From the NCBI GenBank assembly GCA_964583795.1, contig CAZOWX010000003.1:23978-87977 (forward strand): a stretch of DNA of 64,000 bases, in the 5' to 3' direction. This DNA is from an uncultured Pseudomonadales bacterium (GTDB lineage: Bacteria; Patescibacteriota; Microgenomatia; UBA1400; PJMF01). The first letter of the stretch is position 1. Each line of letters starts with the position of its first letter. The notes under the pieces were generated by a model. The model did no database searches, was not told the origin of the DNA, and was given only the letters and a program-made list of their open reading frames with translations. Of this stretch, positions 14,691 to 20,027 are shown one piece after another. The position numbers and the translations under genes were made by a program.

Positions 14691-15461
14691 ATGTTTGAAT
14701 TTTTTACCCAGCAAGATGAGGATGGTAGAACAATTCATTTTTATGAGTTTCTTGTTGATAGACTTCTTGAGCATGTTAATCACGTTTGGAATGGGGATGA
14801 GAGACACTATTCCTTGAACGGTAGCGGTGGGTTAAGGGGAAAGTTGTTACCTCGAAGACACAACAGTAAACCTGATCCTGTAACTTCTTCATCTGGAGAA
14901 CCTGTGGTATCATCAATGCCACTTATGACAGAACCAGCAGCCCCAGAATCAACTAGCAGGAATGTCCCTCCAGTACTTGAGCTTCTTGAACGTGAGGAGG
15001 AAGAACTCGAAACTGTTCCAGCAGCAGAATCTGCCCTCTTTGTAATGGTTCTAGAACTTTTTTATAGTGATAAAGTCAGTACTGTTGAGCAATTCCTATC
15101 ACTTCTGGATGGAGTCGTTACCTTTGCAAGGCAAAACAAACTCACGCTGAACATTCGAGCAACGGATTTACCAGAGTCTCCTCAAACAGATTTCAATGTT
15201 ACAGTAGAGCATTTTGAGAGTTTAACCAGGAGCCTTAGAACTCAATGGCAGAAGCTTTCCGAACTTCAAAAAACAGCACAATTACCCAGTGATGTAATGA
15301 AAGCGCTGATAAAACTAACACTAGATACAATGGCAACACCAGTACGAGTCACGATGTCAAGTAACGCTAAATTAGACAGGAAATCACCTCAGGTTGTAAA
15401 TCTTAGAAAACGGATCCAAGACATTATGATGAAGGATCTAATTGTTGAAAAAAAGGTATAA
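14691..15461 (+). CDS. hypothetical protein (acidic)
   Basis: 256-aa ORF with no recognised motifs. The region looks more AT-rich than the flanking core genes. Confidence 0.45.
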   Translation: MFEFFTQQDEDGRTIHFYEFLVDRLLEHVNHVWNGDERHYSLNGSGGLRGKLLPRRHNSKPDPVTSSSGEPVVSSMPLMTEPAAPESTSRNVPPVLELLEREEEELETVPAAESALFVMVLELFYSDKVSTVEQFLSLLDGVVTFARQNKLTLNIRATDLPESPQTDFNVTVEHFESLTRSLRTQWQKLSELQKTAQLPSDVMKALIKLTLDTMATPVRVTMSSNAKLDRKSPQVVNLRKRIQDIMMKDLIVEKKV

Positions 15462-15657
15462 GACTTGATTTTTGTGTTACTTTAATTAACTCAGTGTTCT
15501 GATTAAGCTACATCACCAATTTTTATTAAGCGTTTTTCTTCTATAAATAGTCATTTACTACATGTACTTCGATTAGATCTATGAGCTTTGCTTACCATGC
15601 TGCTAACACCAACAAAAAGCATTCGAAGAAAATAAGTAGAGTACCTTTTTCGGAGAA

Positions 15658-15879
15658 CTATTGTGCTGCTCCATTAGGAGAAACAAGCTCACTAGCTGCT
15701 ATGACTGCTTGCTGAGTTAAGCTTAGTGCAGGTTCATAGCTGACTTTCTTAAGTCCTTCCAAATAACGCATAACCTGAGCATCTTGTCCTGCAGTCAAAA
15801 CAACGTCTGAATCAGCAAGTCCCAGTTCTTGTAATGCTCTTCCTTGTACTCCTGCCATATATTCTCCTTCTTTTATCAA
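15658..15879 (-). CDS. hypothetical small protein
   Basis: 73-aa ORF. A plausible start at MAGVQGRALQELGL would place the start at 15858. Confidence 0.3.
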   Translation of the reverse strand: MIKEGEYMAGVQGRALQELGLADSDVVLTAGQDAQVMRYLEGLKKVSYEPALSLTQQAVIAASELVSPNGAAQ

Positions 15880-16210
15880 GTACCCGTATTATACCACAAA
15901 ACCCTCCTTTTTTCAACCCGGAAAAGTGGTGGATACCAGAGGGAAGCAGTTAATAGTGGACAGTAAAACAGTGAATAGTCTGTTGCAAGTTTCAAGATGT
16001 AAGTTGCAAGAAAGAAGGGTGGTTGGAGGTTGGTTTAACAGTTAAGAAAGATGAGTTTGAATTGGTTGAATGTCACTACAGCCACTTGAACTAACACGGC
16101 AGGCTTTTACTATTTTGTTGACCCACAGATAATCTTTGGGCCTTTTGCAAAATCAGGTGCTTTATTATTGAATTCATTGACCACTCAGATAATGTCCGTA
16201 ATTTTGGAAA

Positions 16211-16257
16211 TGGATCCCGTTTTTACCCTTTCGGGCACGCGTCAACGGGATGACGAG
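16211..16257 (-). repeat. Hairpin MITE-like repeat, inverted orientation (GGATCCCGTTTTTACCCTTTCGGGCACGCGTCAACGGGATGACGAG)
   Basis: Termini GGATC...GGGATGACG with stem ATCCCGTT / AACGGGAT. Confidence 0.5.
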
Positions 16258-17430: not shown

Positions 17431-17525
17431 TTCGTATTTGCGTTTGTTTAAATTTCTCCAGTCGTATTTCCATCCACCCCTCCTCCCCCTTGCACACACC
17501 ACACCCACATAGTACGCTGTAATAC

Positions 17526-19358
17526 ATGCAAAGCAGCGAACACAGCTCCCAGCATCACTCAGTAACCTCACAAGCCAGAACATTTTTTCATCACGTGTCT
17601 AAGCACCCCTCCCGATTTATGCCCATAGTGGTTATGGTGGCTTTGGTCAGCTCAGTGGTGATGGGAGTTCTGACCTTGGCTGGAACAAAAAATTACGATC
17701 TAAGAAGTCAAGCAGCATACCCATTGTATCAAGCCTGTGTTGTTAACAGTGACTGTCAAAGTAATGTCTGTCGCACTTGTCGTGCTGGTGAAGTGTGTCC
17801 TGATGTGATTGGAAAGTTTTGTTTCTCACCAGATCCCACCAAGATTGTTTCGACAGTCACCCCAACTTGTGTGAGGTCGGGAAACCAACAGGGAACTGGA
17901 CAGTGCTGTTCAGGTGTAAGTTCAGTAACTGATAAGGCAGGTGTTCGTTGGTGTGGGGCAGCCCCGCTACCGACAAAAGTACCTGATTCGAGAAAGCAAT
18001 TATTTGTTAACCAGGGTTGCACACCAGGTGATCCTGAAAATGTTTGTCCCCCTGGAACTTTGTGCATGAACGACCCTAACAGTACTGATGGAAACATGCA
18101 AACGAAATGCATCTCTTCTGAAGGAACAAGTTCTTTGTGTAGTTATACGAGTGTTCGCGGAGAAGTATTATCAATGCAAGTTGGTGCCTATGCCACTTCG
18201 AATGATGGGAAATGTTACCATTGTGGCTTGCGTGGAGCGCCTTCAATAGTGAGTGACACTGCTTGTGTACAACCGACAGATCCACGAACAAGTTGTTACG
18301 AGCAAGGTGACGTGAAGCAATTGAGTAGCGTTCCATGTTGTGCGGGATTGGGTGTGAAGAGGACTGCAAATGGTGAGGTGTGTGATGTGGTGGACACATC
18401 AGAAGAGTGTTATGCTGCTGGAGAAAGAATGGTTGATTTTTCGATCCCGTGTTGTAATCATGAAGCGCCGGATCATAACAGTGATGGTACTATAACAATT
18501 TGTGGTCCGACTGATATTCGGCGATGTCCCTTTGTGAGTACAGATGGAAAGCTTGAATATGTTCAAGTAGGTGTTTGTCGTGGGAGTCAACGTTGTCAAG
18601 AAAACGAGCGAATGGAGACGGATGTGACCTGCGGAACGTCACCAATTGCAAAGCCGTGTTACTCTGGTCTGTTGTGTGCTGACGTTACCTTTGTGAATCG
18701 AAGTGAAAGCTGTCCAGTAGGCACATTTGACTCATATGATGCGTGTAAAAGTGAAGGGGCAAAGACTGGAAGTCCAAAGGTGCAAAGTACTACCAGTAGT
18801 TTAAACACTGAAACGACCAAAGTCGCTGCAAATGTCAGTCAAAAGTACGGCATAACTGTGGACGTTTCTCAAAACAAGACGATGCTGCCAGATACCGTGA
18901 AGACCCTCGATACCACTTTAGATAAGTTACCGCAATCATTCGTTGTTCAGGCGAAAAATATTACTTTTGTCGATGGCCAACAGAAGAGTTCAAGCAATGA
19001 TTTAAAGGGAAATATTGTGGTGAGTTGTGATCCCACGAAGGCGATTGAATGTCAAGAAAATGTGGTGCACCTCATCGCCATAGGCTCAACGGAAAAACCA
19101 GTGGTAACTTCGACCTGTAAAGATGGGTGCAGTGCTCTGGATGCGTTTCACAAAGTGATAACTGCAAATAAACTGTTATCAGTGAACTCGCAAGGAGTGA
19201 TTGACCCTACGAGTTCAAAACTACAGTTGCCATCAAAGTTAGCGCCAACCGAAAAAGAAGCGTTTGCATATTATCAGGCAAAGGCGATTTTGGACCCCAA
19301 AGCACTGAGCAGTGAGTCCAGTGAGCTAGCCAAATTATTTGCAGAAATGGGAAAATAA
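17526..19358 (+). CDS. Cysteine-rich secreted or surface protein (N-terminal signal anchor)
   Basis: 610 aa. A TM helix near the N-terminus is followed by more than 45 Cys in repeated C-x-C / CC contexts, consistent with a disulfide-rich extracellular domain. Confidence 0.6.
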   Translation: MQSSEHSSQHHSVTSQARTFFHHVSKHPSRFMPIVVMVALVSSVVMGVLTLAGTKNYDLRSQAAYPLYQACVVNSDCQSNVCRTCRAGEVCPDVIGKFCFSPDPTKIVSTVTPTCVRSGNQQGTGQCCSGVSSVTDKAGVRWCGAAPLPTKVPDSRKQLFVNQGCTPGDPENVCPPGTLCMNDPNSTDGNMQTKCISSEGTSSLCSYTSVRGEVLSMQVGAYATSNDGKCYHCGLRGAPSIVSDTACVQPTDPRTSCYEQGDVKQLSSVPCCAGLGVKRTANGEVCDVVDTSEECYAAGERMVDFSIPCCNHEAPDHNSDGTITICGPTDIRRCPFVSTDGKLEYVQVGVCRGSQRCQENERMETDVTCGTSPIAKPCYSGLLCADVTFVNRSESCPVGTFDSYDACKSEGAKTGSPKVQSTTSSLNTETTKVAANVSQKYGITVDVSQNKTMLPDTVKTLDTTLDKLPQSFVVQAKNITFVDGQQKSSSNDLKGNIVVSCDPTKAIECQENVVHLIAIGSTEKPVVTSTCKDGCSALDAFHKVITANKLLSVNSQGVIDPTSSKLQLPSKLAPTEKEAFAYYQAKAILDPKALSSESSELAKLFAEMGK

Positions 19359-19367
19359 GGAAAAGCA

Positions 19368-20027
19368 ATGATTAGTGAACTCTTTGTACTACCATTACGA
19401 TCGAGTGTTGAACAAGTGCAAGCCCAGTTAGGTCTGCCGTTGCAAACCACTAGTGAAAATGGAGAAGATATCCTATGGTATGAGTCAGTTGTTCCAGACT
19501 ATGCCACGCACTACTTTATCCAGGCTGGGAGACTCGAGAGAATAGCGGTAAATACCAACAAGCGACAGCTGACGGTTGCAGACATTGAGGCAGAACTTGG
19601 AAAACCTGCTTGGGCAGTACGACGTTTTGCTGCAGTTGATGATTCTTTAGAACAAGTGATCATGGTATGGCCACAACAAGGGTACAGTGTTGTTGCGACT
19701 ACCATGGGCCAGCAGAGTGCAAAAGTGATTCGAGTTGAGCAGTTTAAGGCTAGGAGTCTAGCGGAATACAAGAGTAATTTGGGAATGCAGTACGCTGGTC
19801 ATGAAGAGATCGCAATGCTTAGCGAAGAACAGCAAGAGCCAAGTGCGAATGTGACAACTGCAATTATTGCGCCATCAGTCCCCAAACAAGCCAAGTCGAC
19901 TGTTGTAAGTTTTGATATTGCAATCTTGCTGATCATTTTAGTTGCGATTGTTGGGGCAGGTATGGCGATGTATCTGTCAACGAAGAAAAAGCCAGTTGAG
20001 AAGCAACAACCTCCTGAAGTAAGTTAA
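19368..20027 (+). CDS. hypothetical protein with a C-terminal TM anchor
   Basis: 219 aa with a hydrophobic helix near the C-terminus, followed by KKKPVEKQQPPEVS. Confidence 0.5.
   Translation: MISELFVLPLRSSVEQVQAQLGLPLQTTSENGEDILWYESVVPDYATHYFIQAGRLERIAVNTNKRQLTVADIEAELGKPAWAVRRFAAVDDSLEQVIMVWPQQGYSVVATTMGQQSAKVIRVEQFKARSLAEYKSNLGMQYAGHEEIAMLSEEQQEPSANVTTAIIAPSVPKQAKSTVVSFDIAILLIILVAIVGAGMAMYLSTKKKPVEKQQPPEVS

Follow-up and report, generated by a model that had tools for sequence, protein, structure and literature searches.

A likely strain-level gene-replacement hotspot between hpf and a P-type ATPase gene in a Patescibacteria genome, with a hypervariable Cys-rich protein at its core

What kind of locus is a block of five genes without a family match that lies among ordinary housekeeping genes? 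The window analysed here is a 64,000-nucleotide stretch of contig CAZOWX010000003.1, and the block occupies its positions 14691–20027, between hpf and a gene for a P-type ATPase. The sequence-only reading had listed five open reading frames (ORFs) in the block, every one of which was found in the ORF list at the coordinates it gave, and had taken them for a single horizontally acquired island next to a tRNA-like pair, encoding surface or host-interaction proteins. We favour another account, with a probability of roughly 0.6, in which the hpf–ATPase interval is a strain-level gene-replacement hotspot and not a mobile island. The earlier reading holds in part: the locus is variable, and its 610-residue Cys-rich product is apparently exported or membrane-anchored. 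This product also proved hypervariable.

The flanks are ordinary chromosome, with recR and hpf upstream and the ATPase gene downstream. The conserved left flank, hpf (13082–13429, + strand), encodes a ribosome hibernation factor assigned to S30AE/HPF by Pfam, while the conserved right flank (20171–22717, + strand) encodes a type II (Ca2+-like) P-type ATPase recognised by both Pfam and NCBIfam. Elsewhere in the window are further housekeeping genes, including those for DnaX, signal peptidase, AdoHcyase, CysRS, MreBC, PBP2, DprA, TopA and Fpg. The variable segment from hpf to the ATPase gene measures 6.7 kb. Its left edge (13430–14690) is non-coding, without a long ORF, and contains dispersed short repeats, an inverted pair of elements resembling transfer-messenger RNA (tmRNA) and a partial third copy of these.

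The interval was compared with three informative relatives: the metagenome-assembled genome (MAG) JBDTME010000007.1 (L003), labelled 'Patescibacteria group bacterium', a Logan contig from SRR33126934 (L001) and a contig from SRR29476927 (L002). The MAG was the only species-representative genome to contain a close ATPase, and no relatives of the enzyme were found in JGI metagenomes. Synteny between the MAG and the window extends over more than 20 kb, with protein identities of 85% for RecR, 74% for HPF, 88% for AdoHcyase and 74% for the ATPase; such synteny, together with identities of 71–88%, identifies the organism as a member of the Patescibacteria. The order recR-hpf-...-ATPase is kept in L003, where the hpf–ATPase interval is 1.8 kb long as against 6.7 kb in the window. 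Only 57 nt follow hpf there, the segment corresponding to 13430–14690 is absent, and the two ORFs present (203 and 254 aa) have no similarity to any of the five. The L001 contig begins at a hairpin matching window position 16212 and continues through a non-coding stretch that is 88.7% identical to the window (16242–16403 versus L001:16–183), beyond which the coding DNA is unrelated. An unrelated 261-aa gene occupies the position of the 330-aa gene of the window, followed in order by a 669-aa homolog of the Cys-rich protein (40–45% identity), a 221-aa homolog of the 219-aa protein encoded next to it (67%) and the ATPase gene (92%). From nt 18724 to the end of the 219-aa gene, L002 and the window are 96.9% identical in DNA, whereas 5' of nt 18724 the Cys-rich region retains ~33–50% protein identity. 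The two genes therefore keep their order on both contigs, and that of L001 extends into the ATPase gene. Pairwise BLAST detected no significant similarity among the positional counterparts (256, 330, 261, 203 and 254 aa).

The site is thus fixed between conserved, syntenic core genes, as seen in the gene order of L003 and, for L001, in the upstream non-coding piece and the ATPase gene only. What occupies it across strains is unrelated or highly divergent: a 261-aa gene in place of the 330-aa gene, 203- and 254-aa ORFs in L003, and Cys-rich alleles that are 33–45% identical. Ordinary composition and conserved synteny in all relatives had been named beforehand as the outcome that would contradict a foreign block. 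The block proved non-syntenic across relatives whose flanks are syntenic, so that outcome was not observed, although composition is low only in the left half, and modestly so. Three further contigs (L004–L006) carry recR and upstream genes and end ~15–300 nt past recR, which makes them uninformative on the block. The short-read contigs of the relatives break at dispersed repeats, L005 and L006 ending at 12420–12449 and L001 beginning at 16209.

Variation at the site is concentrated in the Cys-rich protein (610 aa; 17526–19358, + strand), whose regions were delimited from the ORF list, hydropathy and alignments. An N-terminal tail (aa 1–32) precedes the one hydrophobic segment of the protein, a transmembrane (TM) segment at aa ~33–55 (nt 17622–17690), in agreement with the signal anchor predicted earlier; the protein looks exported or membrane-anchored on this basis. 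A conserved 6-Cys module (aa 56–105, nt 17691–17840) leads into a hypervariable region with 28 Cys (aa 106–407, nt 17841–18746), a Ser/Thr-rich linker (aa 408–431, nt 18747–18818; S+T content 46%) and a C-terminal domain with 4 Cys (aa 432–610). The total is 38 Cys (6.2%), and not the more than 45 reported previously. All 38 align to Cys in the L001 homolog, whereas identity over the remaining positions is 41%. The contrast is sharper still within the hypervariable part, with 28/28 Cys kept against 32% identity at other positions, and the comparison with L002 gives 19/19 against 33%. Three C-x(11-13)-CC-x(13-15)-C modules are present (C115/127/128/143, C257/271/272/286 and C295/309/310/326), and disulfides are presumably formed among the 28 invariant Cys.

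Rates of divergence change steeply along the operon and within the protein itself. Between the window and L001, the nonsynonymous substitution rate (dN) is 0.053 for the ATPase, with a ratio to the synonymous rate (dN/dS) of 0.05, but 0.26 for the 219-aa protein and 0.53 for the Cys-rich protein. Identity of the latter to L001 is 62–71% over aa ~25–122 (the TM segment and first Cys module), drops to 29–47% over aa ~123–432, and recovers to 51–57% over aa ~433–523. The comparison with L002 in 30-codon windows shows a sharp break at about aa 405–413, which places a recombination breakpoint at 18724–18746 (+ strand), at the last Cys of the region (C407) and the border with the linker. On its 5' side the proportion of synonymous differences (pS) is 0.55–0.80 and that of nonsynonymous differences (pN) 0.34–0.55; on its 3' side these values are 0.05–0.28 and 0–0.03. 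Within the 3' side, pS is 0.05 over the first 30 codons, rises to 0.19–0.28 over 90 codons from ~30 codons past the breakpoint, and returns to 0.05 beyond. Against L002, then, there is a sharp boundary with raised and mainly synonymous divergence beside it. Because synonymous differences have reached saturation 5' of the junction and are few 3' of it, the allele was imported by homologous recombination and did not arise by accelerated evolution in place: the Cys-rich region of L002 is an allele swap. The three Cys-rich alleles are ~33–45% identical to one another and about equally distant.

Replaced islands of aquatic prokaryotes encode exposed structures, and the peaks of divergence at their boundaries consist mostly of synonymous substitutions (Lopez-Perez, Martin-Cuadrado and Rodriguez-Valera 2014, PMC4033161). 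The present locus is like these replacement flexible genomic islands in its fixed site between core genes, its divergent genes, its lack of mobility genes, its exchange by homologous recombination, with abrupt edges next to which synonymous divergence is raised, and in the exposed structures that we presume it to encode. It is unlike them in scale and content. The islands are usually tens of kb long and carry glycosyltransferase, O-antigen, flagellar or pilus genes, whereas the variable unit here is ~3–6 kb and has as its core a single modular protein with a swapped central domain. The phage-driven rationale is the islands' own and might extend to this locus by analogy.

A second likeness is to the mosaic alleles of bacterial surface proteins such as pneumococcal PspA and PspC and the PorB and Opa proteins of Neisseria. 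In these, as in the Cys-rich protein, homologous recombination mixes deeply diverged classes of alleles, with breakpoints where one domain meets the next, and the anchor or stalk is conserved. There is no relationship in sequence or fold, and the locus described here differs in having no known immune driver and a scaffold set by invariant Cys.

Could the variation instead be generated by targeted hypermutation, through a diversity-generating retroelement (DGR)? DGRs are common in bacteria of the candidate phyla radiation (CPR), with surface proteins as their targets, and this background is all that speaks for such a mechanism, which has no support in the window. The candidate was rejected: the scanned ORFs included no reverse transcriptase and the window no template/variable repeat pair, the gene being repeated neither internally nor anywhere in the window. 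Moreover, the divergence runs over more than 900 nt, includes indels and has saturated the synonymous sites. We consider a DGR extremely improbable.

The two genes at the right of the block may work together. The putative partner protein (219 aa; 19368–20027, + strand) starts 9 nt 3' of the Cys-rich gene, is preceded by an AAGGA Shine-Dalgarno sequence, and has by hydropathy one hydrophobic segment, a TM segment near the C-terminus (aa ~178–206, nt ~19899–19985) that is followed by KKKP and corresponds to the C-terminal anchor proposed before. Two relatives of this protein were found, and it is present only alongside the Cys-rich gene. AlphaFold predicts its structure with low confidence (mean pLDDT 52; ~70–75 over residues 1–75), and the model bears a weak resemblance to BLIP/BamE/DUF4309-like folds, small helix-plus-sheet structures typical of extracytoplasmic binding or inhibitor proteins. 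This resemblance may be taken as a lead only.

Relatives of the Cys-rich protein are also few. Among 5.8e9 clusters the search returned the protein itself and one relative at 40% identity, while a HMMER profile search of 1.84e9 representatives added two proteins, P0011 (768 aa, 62 Cys, 8.1%) and P0012 (524 aa, 5.7% Cys), plus one spurious repeat protein. Both new proteins are encoded on NCBI genome contigs (45 kb in the case of P0011). Their likeness to the window protein is confined to the TM segment and first module, C..NS[DE]C..GVCR[TE]C...E[VA]CPD..GK[FY]CF, and their remaining parts are unrelated, though still Cys-rich. It follows that the family is defined by its membrane-proximal module and that the ectodomain beyond is free to vary. 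The combination of the TM segment with a C-x5-C-x4-C-x2-C-x5-C-x7-C stalk module was seen in four proteins only, and no relatives of the Cys-rich alignment were found in JGI metagenomes or IMG/VR. Near its C-terminus P0011 has a HEAIH motif, without a Pfam match, which could mark a metallopeptidase-like effector domain.

These features raise the alternative of a polymorphic effector or toxin with a cognate immunity or inhibitor protein, in which the 610-aa protein would be displayed or released, with its C-terminal domain as the active part, and would be neutralised by the 219-aa protein. The tight coupling of the two genes fits such a pair, and so does the limited likeness to P0011 and P0012, which extends over the N-terminal TM segment and 6-Cys module only; the C-terminal parts of these two differ and in one case include HEAIH. 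However, the hypervariable part of the window protein is its central Cys-rich region, and it is the C-terminal domain and the 219-aa protein that are conserved. Family scans detected no toxin, peptidase or immunity family, and the window protein has no HExxH motif. On balance we find the effector–immunity interpretation doubtful, though less so than hypermutation.

Returning to the proposed replacement hotspot, its left half (14691–17430) contains three orphan genes. The first (14691–15461, + strand; ORF list and hydropathy) encodes an acidic protein of 256 aa without Cys or a TM segment, with a GC content at third codon positions (GC3) of 0.30. The second is a small gene on the opposite strand (15658–15879, – strand; ORF list; GC3 0.22), 73 aa long from a TTG codon and likely 66 aa from an ATG at 15858, where an AAGGAG Shine-Dalgarno sequence and an 11/12 promoter match (TTGAAA-17-TATAAT with TG) precede the start. 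The third (16438–17430, + strand; ORF list and hydropathy; GC3 0.29) begins with TTG and encodes 330 aa, also without a TM segment. Scans against Pfam, NCBIfam, PHROGs and PADLOC gave no match for any of the five proteins of the block, nor did family scans for the products encoded at the corresponding positions in L001 and L003, and sequence-profile searches of the PDB were also without a match. The 330-aa protein found itself alone among the 5.8e9 clusters, and the 256-aa ORF was a singleton at the 90% cluster level, the sole homology search made for it beyond viral and phage sets; the 73-aa ORF was covered by family scans and an exact-sequence look-up only. The earlier statement that the genes have no recognisable homolog is strengthened by these results, with no family matches and very few relatives among billions of proteins.

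The composition of the block was checked by GC and GC3. The segment 14691–17430 has a GC content of 0.397, which places it in the bottom 3.9% of windows of its size (mean 0.425, sd 0.015), and the GC3 values of its three genes lie below the window mean of ~0.39 (z –1.6 to –3.2). The AT-richness noted earlier is therefore real for this segment, but it is modest, and elsewhere the window falls to a GC content of 0.366. The two right-hand genes are ordinary: 17526–20027 has a GC content of 0.453, at the GC-rich end of equal-size windows, and the GC3 values of the genes are 0.38 and 0.39. All five ORFs show the frame signature GC1 > GC2 > GC3, as do the known genes of the window.

Some of the three left-hand ORFs (256, 66/73 and 330 aa) might not be real genes, being either chance ORFs or decaying pseudogenes in a repeat-rich spacer. 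Their atypical GC3 would fit this, as would the absence of a clear Shine-Dalgarno sequence before the 330-aa ORF and the search results, in which the full protein search gave no homolog for the 330-aa ORF, the 256-aa ORF was a singleton and the 73-aa ORF stands without a homology search. Yet 256 and 330 aa are long for sequence of 42% GC, all three show the codon-position signature of known genes, the small ORF has its promoter match and Shine-Dalgarno sequence, and the 256-aa product and a 328-aa product are called in the NCBI annotation. Spurious ORFs are in our judgement unlikely.

The left border of the segment is where the tRNA-like pair had been placed. Rfam identifies the two elements as the sole matches in the window at E up to 0.01, both to the tmRNA model RF00023: element A (13647–13718, + strand) scores 24.8 bits (E 2.8e-7), and element B (14119–14189, – strand), of the same architecture, 31.8 bits (E 3e-10). 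Both are below the gathering score of 47. Each is ~71 nt long and combines a perfect T-arm with a 6–7-bp hairpin, the loops being CCUGCGAAA and CCACGAA. In element A the acceptor stem GGGGGUG/CACCUCC has a G3:U70 pair, and the T-arm reads GCGGG-UUCGAUC-CCCGU. The string GGGGGUG...GCGGGUUCGAUCCCCGU-CACCUCC-A is present in both copies and aligned at high posterior probability, giving a 7-bp acceptor stem and a T-arm. The mRNA-like interior of the model (~300 positions) is replaced in both by 23–33 nt containing a short internal hairpin. When A and B are aligned the arms are in common, and the mini stem reads AGC-UGGU-GCU in one and CUC-UGGU-GAG in the other, a compensatory change. ARAGORN called 0 tRNA or tmRNA genes for the pair, which has neither an mRNA-like domain with a tag reading frame nor a score above the gathering threshold, and by sequence A and B are not bona fide tRNA or tmRNA genes. 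What stands of the earlier description is that an inverted pair exists ~500 nt 5' of the first ORF; its members are sub-threshold tmRNA-like elements and not tRNA genes.

The mitochondrial tmRNAs of jakobids are described as reduced and lacking the mRNA-like region (Jacob et al. 2004, as cited in PMC11915505). Elements A and B resemble tmRNA (RF00023) and these jakobid forms in the acceptor stem with G3:U70, the T-arm and the A discriminator, and they resemble the reduced jakobid form in the absence of the mRNA-like domain. They are unlike tmRNA in scoring below the gathering threshold, in the 23–33-nt interior and in lying in a spacer as an inverted pair accompanied by a partial copy. They are known here as sequence alone, and the pair is missing at the syntenic site of L003. 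The T-arm/acceptor motif had no exact match in IMG/VR viral contigs.

Between the two elements, 13975–14077 (– strand) could encode a small RNA of ~65 nt. A promoter-like TTGACT-17-TATAAT (14077–14049, 11/12) and a terminator-like hairpin with a T-run (14007–13982) delimit the feature, which contains the partial third copy region (14017–14045). It carries UUCGUGGACACGAC, which over 14 nt is perfectly complementary to the hairpin inside element B, and the pairing reaches ~20 bp around a short bulge when the adjacent CUCACC, opposite GGUGAG, is counted. The feature might just as well be an incomplete third copy of the tRNA-like element that has undergone rearrangement.

The elements bear on the rival account in which the block is a classical integrative genomic island, or the remnant of one, inserted by a site-specific recombinase at a tRNA/tmRNA-type target with the five genes as cargo. 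Genes for tmRNA often serve as island integration sites (PMC11915505), and a left border with tmRNA-like elements and a partial third copy suggests past rearrangement; the low GC3 of the left three genes and the absence from L003 of the whole segment, tRNA-like pair included, point the same way. Against this, the elements are not real tRNA or tmRNA genes, and the two copies are inverted and both full-length. No direct repeat (att) of the tRNA-like 3' part was found near 16.2 or 20.0 kb, the tRNA-like sequence recurring only at 13.6–14.2 kb as the inverted full-length and partial copies. A Pfam scan of 49 window ORFs, those of the block included, found no integrase, transposase, reverse transcriptase or other recombinase. 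Phage or viral similarity was also lacking: IMG/VR gave no match for the Cys-rich alignment or the 256- and 330-aa proteins, and tblastn against GenBank phages gave none, the phage and viral searches taking in the 256-, 330- and 610-aa proteins and not the two short ones. Finally, the two right-hand genes are of normal composition, recur in order on the L001 and L002 contigs (with the ATPase gene on the former) and diverge by allelic replacement, not insertion. A single horizontally acquired island is thus contradicted by the right half of the block, and we judge an integrative island or its remnant improbable.

A conserved non-coding stretch (16212–16403, + strand) is the probable shared promoter or leader, and left homology arm, of the variable operon. 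It comprises a hairpin (16212–16255), the 17-nt motif ACTGTCCACTATTAACT (16312–16328) and an extended -10-like TGcTATACT. The hairpin had been reported at 16211; it exists, and is a member of a dispersed family resembling repetitive extragenic palindromes (REPs) and miniature inverted-repeat transposable elements (MITEs). The family is built on CGTCATCC(C/T)G...CGGGATGACG (GATCCCG...CGGGATGACG) and has copies at 1978–2127, 12420–12710, 13524–13560, 16212–16255, 27901–28331, 29399–29702, 55259–55295 and 60432–60680. Within these, CGTCATCCCG occurs at 1978, 13524, 27901 and 55259, and CGGGATGACG at 2118, 16246, 28322 and 29693. Such short dispersed repeats fill the spacers and are common to other intergenic regions of the window. 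The copies at 13516–13533 and 16246–16263 stand in opposite orientation on either side of the tRNA-like pair and of the first two orphan genes.

The motif ACTGTCCACTATTAACT occurs 7 times in the window when up to 3 mismatches are allowed, against 0.16 expected, and all copies lie between called ORFs: 15948–15964 (–), 16312–16328 (+), 29119 (–), 40518 (–), 55102 (–) and 58055/58062 (+). Two of the copies, both perfect, point towards one another in the spacer that separates the small divergent gene from the 330-aa gene. The motif may serve a regulon as its operator or promoter element.

In the mechanism that we propose, the right half (17526–20027) would be a lineage-restricted two-gene operon. 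Its Cys-rich product would be held in the membrane by the N-terminal signal anchor and would expose, in order, the 6-Cys module, the ~300-aa region with 28 Cys, the Ser/Thr linker and the more conserved C-terminal domain. The 28 invariant Cys, presumably as disulfides, would hold the ~300-aa region while leaving its loops free to vary, and homologous recombination would exchange deeply diverged alleles as cassettes, one of the crossovers lying at the border between domains. The likeliest driver would be selection on surface recognition by phage or by the host cell of an epibiont, with the protein serving as adhesin or receptor and the co-transcribed, C-terminally anchored 219-aa protein as its membrane partner. 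The left half (14691–17430) would hold three fast-turnover orphan genes, set among REP/MITE-like repeats and tmRNA-like remnants and replaced by unrelated genes in relatives. The hydropathy profiles give an anchor in the 610-aa protein, a C-terminal TM segment in the 219-aa protein and no TM segment in the left three. Of the elements of this account, the synteny, the gene replacement, the differing rates, the breakpoint, the constancy of the Cys and the lack of mobility genes were observed; surface exposure, disulfides, the agent of selection and the role of the partner are inferred.

Several observations weigh against this interpretation. The dN/dS of the Cys-rich gene is below 1 (0.22 versus L001, 0.42 versus L002) with saturated dS, so positive or diversifying selection is not demonstrated, and fast neutral evolution of loops combined with recombination would look alike. 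In L001 the dS of the ATPase gene is ~1.0, compared with 0.24–0.51 for most genes of L006 from the same sample (1.18 for DUF5671); this excess could be read as raised synonymous divergence beside the variable segment, but could simply mean that the sample contains two populations with different genomes. The informative relatives number three, two of them on short contigs, and are not a population sample. Hydropathy, which gave the anchor, is the one source for the surface exposure of the 610-aa protein, as its structure model, with a mean pLDDT of 36.5, could not be used. How the 219-aa protein sits in the membrane is ambiguous, since it lacks a signal peptide and yet weakly matches extracytoplasmic folds, and family scans yield no function for the left three genes. 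As for the host interaction and episymbiotic lifestyle proposed earlier, the data establish membership in the Patescibacteria, and the remainder we infer.

Comparable proteins have been described in other CPR bacteria. The Cys-rich extracellular proteins of Peribacteria have ~7% Cys, and their differences between strains are among the chief origins of genotypic variety (Anantharaman et al. 2016, PMC4736985). The 610-aa protein shares with these a CPR lineage, a Cys content of ~6–7%, an export or membrane signal, the absence of functional annotation, the concentration of strain variation in them and a proposed role in attachment; it has 6.2% Cys (38/610), a signal anchor and three divergent alleles. 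The Peribacteria proteins differ in their mean length of 1,655 aa, their multi-gene clusters and their weak resemblance to Myxococcus Cys-rich repeats. The 610-aa protein is instead encoded in an operon of two genes, and neither Pfam nor NCBIfam gives a repeat match for it at E up to 0.1; the two are likened by description only. The general phenomenon, in the form of strain-variable Cys-rich CPR proteins and of replacement islands, is already known, and the protein family described here is a previously unclassified one within it.

Among protists, Cys-rich variant surface proteins include the variant-specific surface proteins (VSPs) of Giardia and the immobilisation antigens of ciliates. Like the 610-aa protein, these have a membrane-anchored ectodomain with a periodic framework of invariant Cys and hypervariable loops. 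They are unlike it in being eukaryotic, anchored at the C-terminus and switched among many paralogs in one genome, whereas the 610-aa protein varies between strains and, to judge from the window, where 17526–19358 is not repeated even in part, is encoded once per genome. A bolder proposal, which we put forward very tentatively and think unlikely as a whole, is that the 610-aa protein is the founding member of an undescribed bacterial family working like the protist variant surface proteins. A fixed disulfide framework would carry hypervariable loops, the ectodomain cassette would be exchanged between strains at a domain border and would determine which host cell (or phage) is bound by the ultra-small epibiont, and the C-terminally anchored, co-transcribed protein would be its membrane dock.

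Other features of the window were seen beside the locus. A second fast-evolving gene in otherwise conserved surroundings (9987–11066, + strand) encodes a 359-aa protein without a Pfam match, whose counterparts in L006, L004 and L003 are 96%, 51% and 39% identical to it; in L005, a 99%-identical strain, ~380 nt of this gene (10622–11004) are swapped for ~300 nt of other sequence. The recR–hpf spacer (12336–13081) comprises 750 nt of non-coding DNA with a nested long inverted repeat, whose arms pair 12418–12432 with 12697–12710 and 12474–12489 with 12638–12653 (16 nt, perfect), and L006 has another insert there. Just 3' of the hpf stop codon, an intergenic hairpin, CCCAAGGC-TGGTCC-GCCTTGGG with a tail (13441–13488), has a 96% identical copy at 50372–50419 and more at 5139–5178 and 58728–58765. 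Directly 3' of the ATPase gene, 22737–23540 (+ strand) encodes a 267-aa low-complexity protein rich in Q, S, T and E, 37% identical in L003 and without a family match. Further downstream, the protein encoded at 31771–32835 (+ strand) has both a polysaccharide lyase domain and a type I dockerin domain.

For annotation, the logic of the block changes from a mobile island to a variable hotspot driven by recombination, and the neighbouring tRNA-like elements are no longer to be read as tRNA genes. Cells of the Patescibacteria (CPR) are thought to live attached to other microbes, and few of the molecules that mediate recognition are known. By combining a membrane-anchored protein whose Cys are all conserved, loops that are hypervariable between strains and a demonstrable recombination breakpoint, this small and well-delimited locus offers a practical candidate for a determinant of the host or phage interface, and a strain marker.

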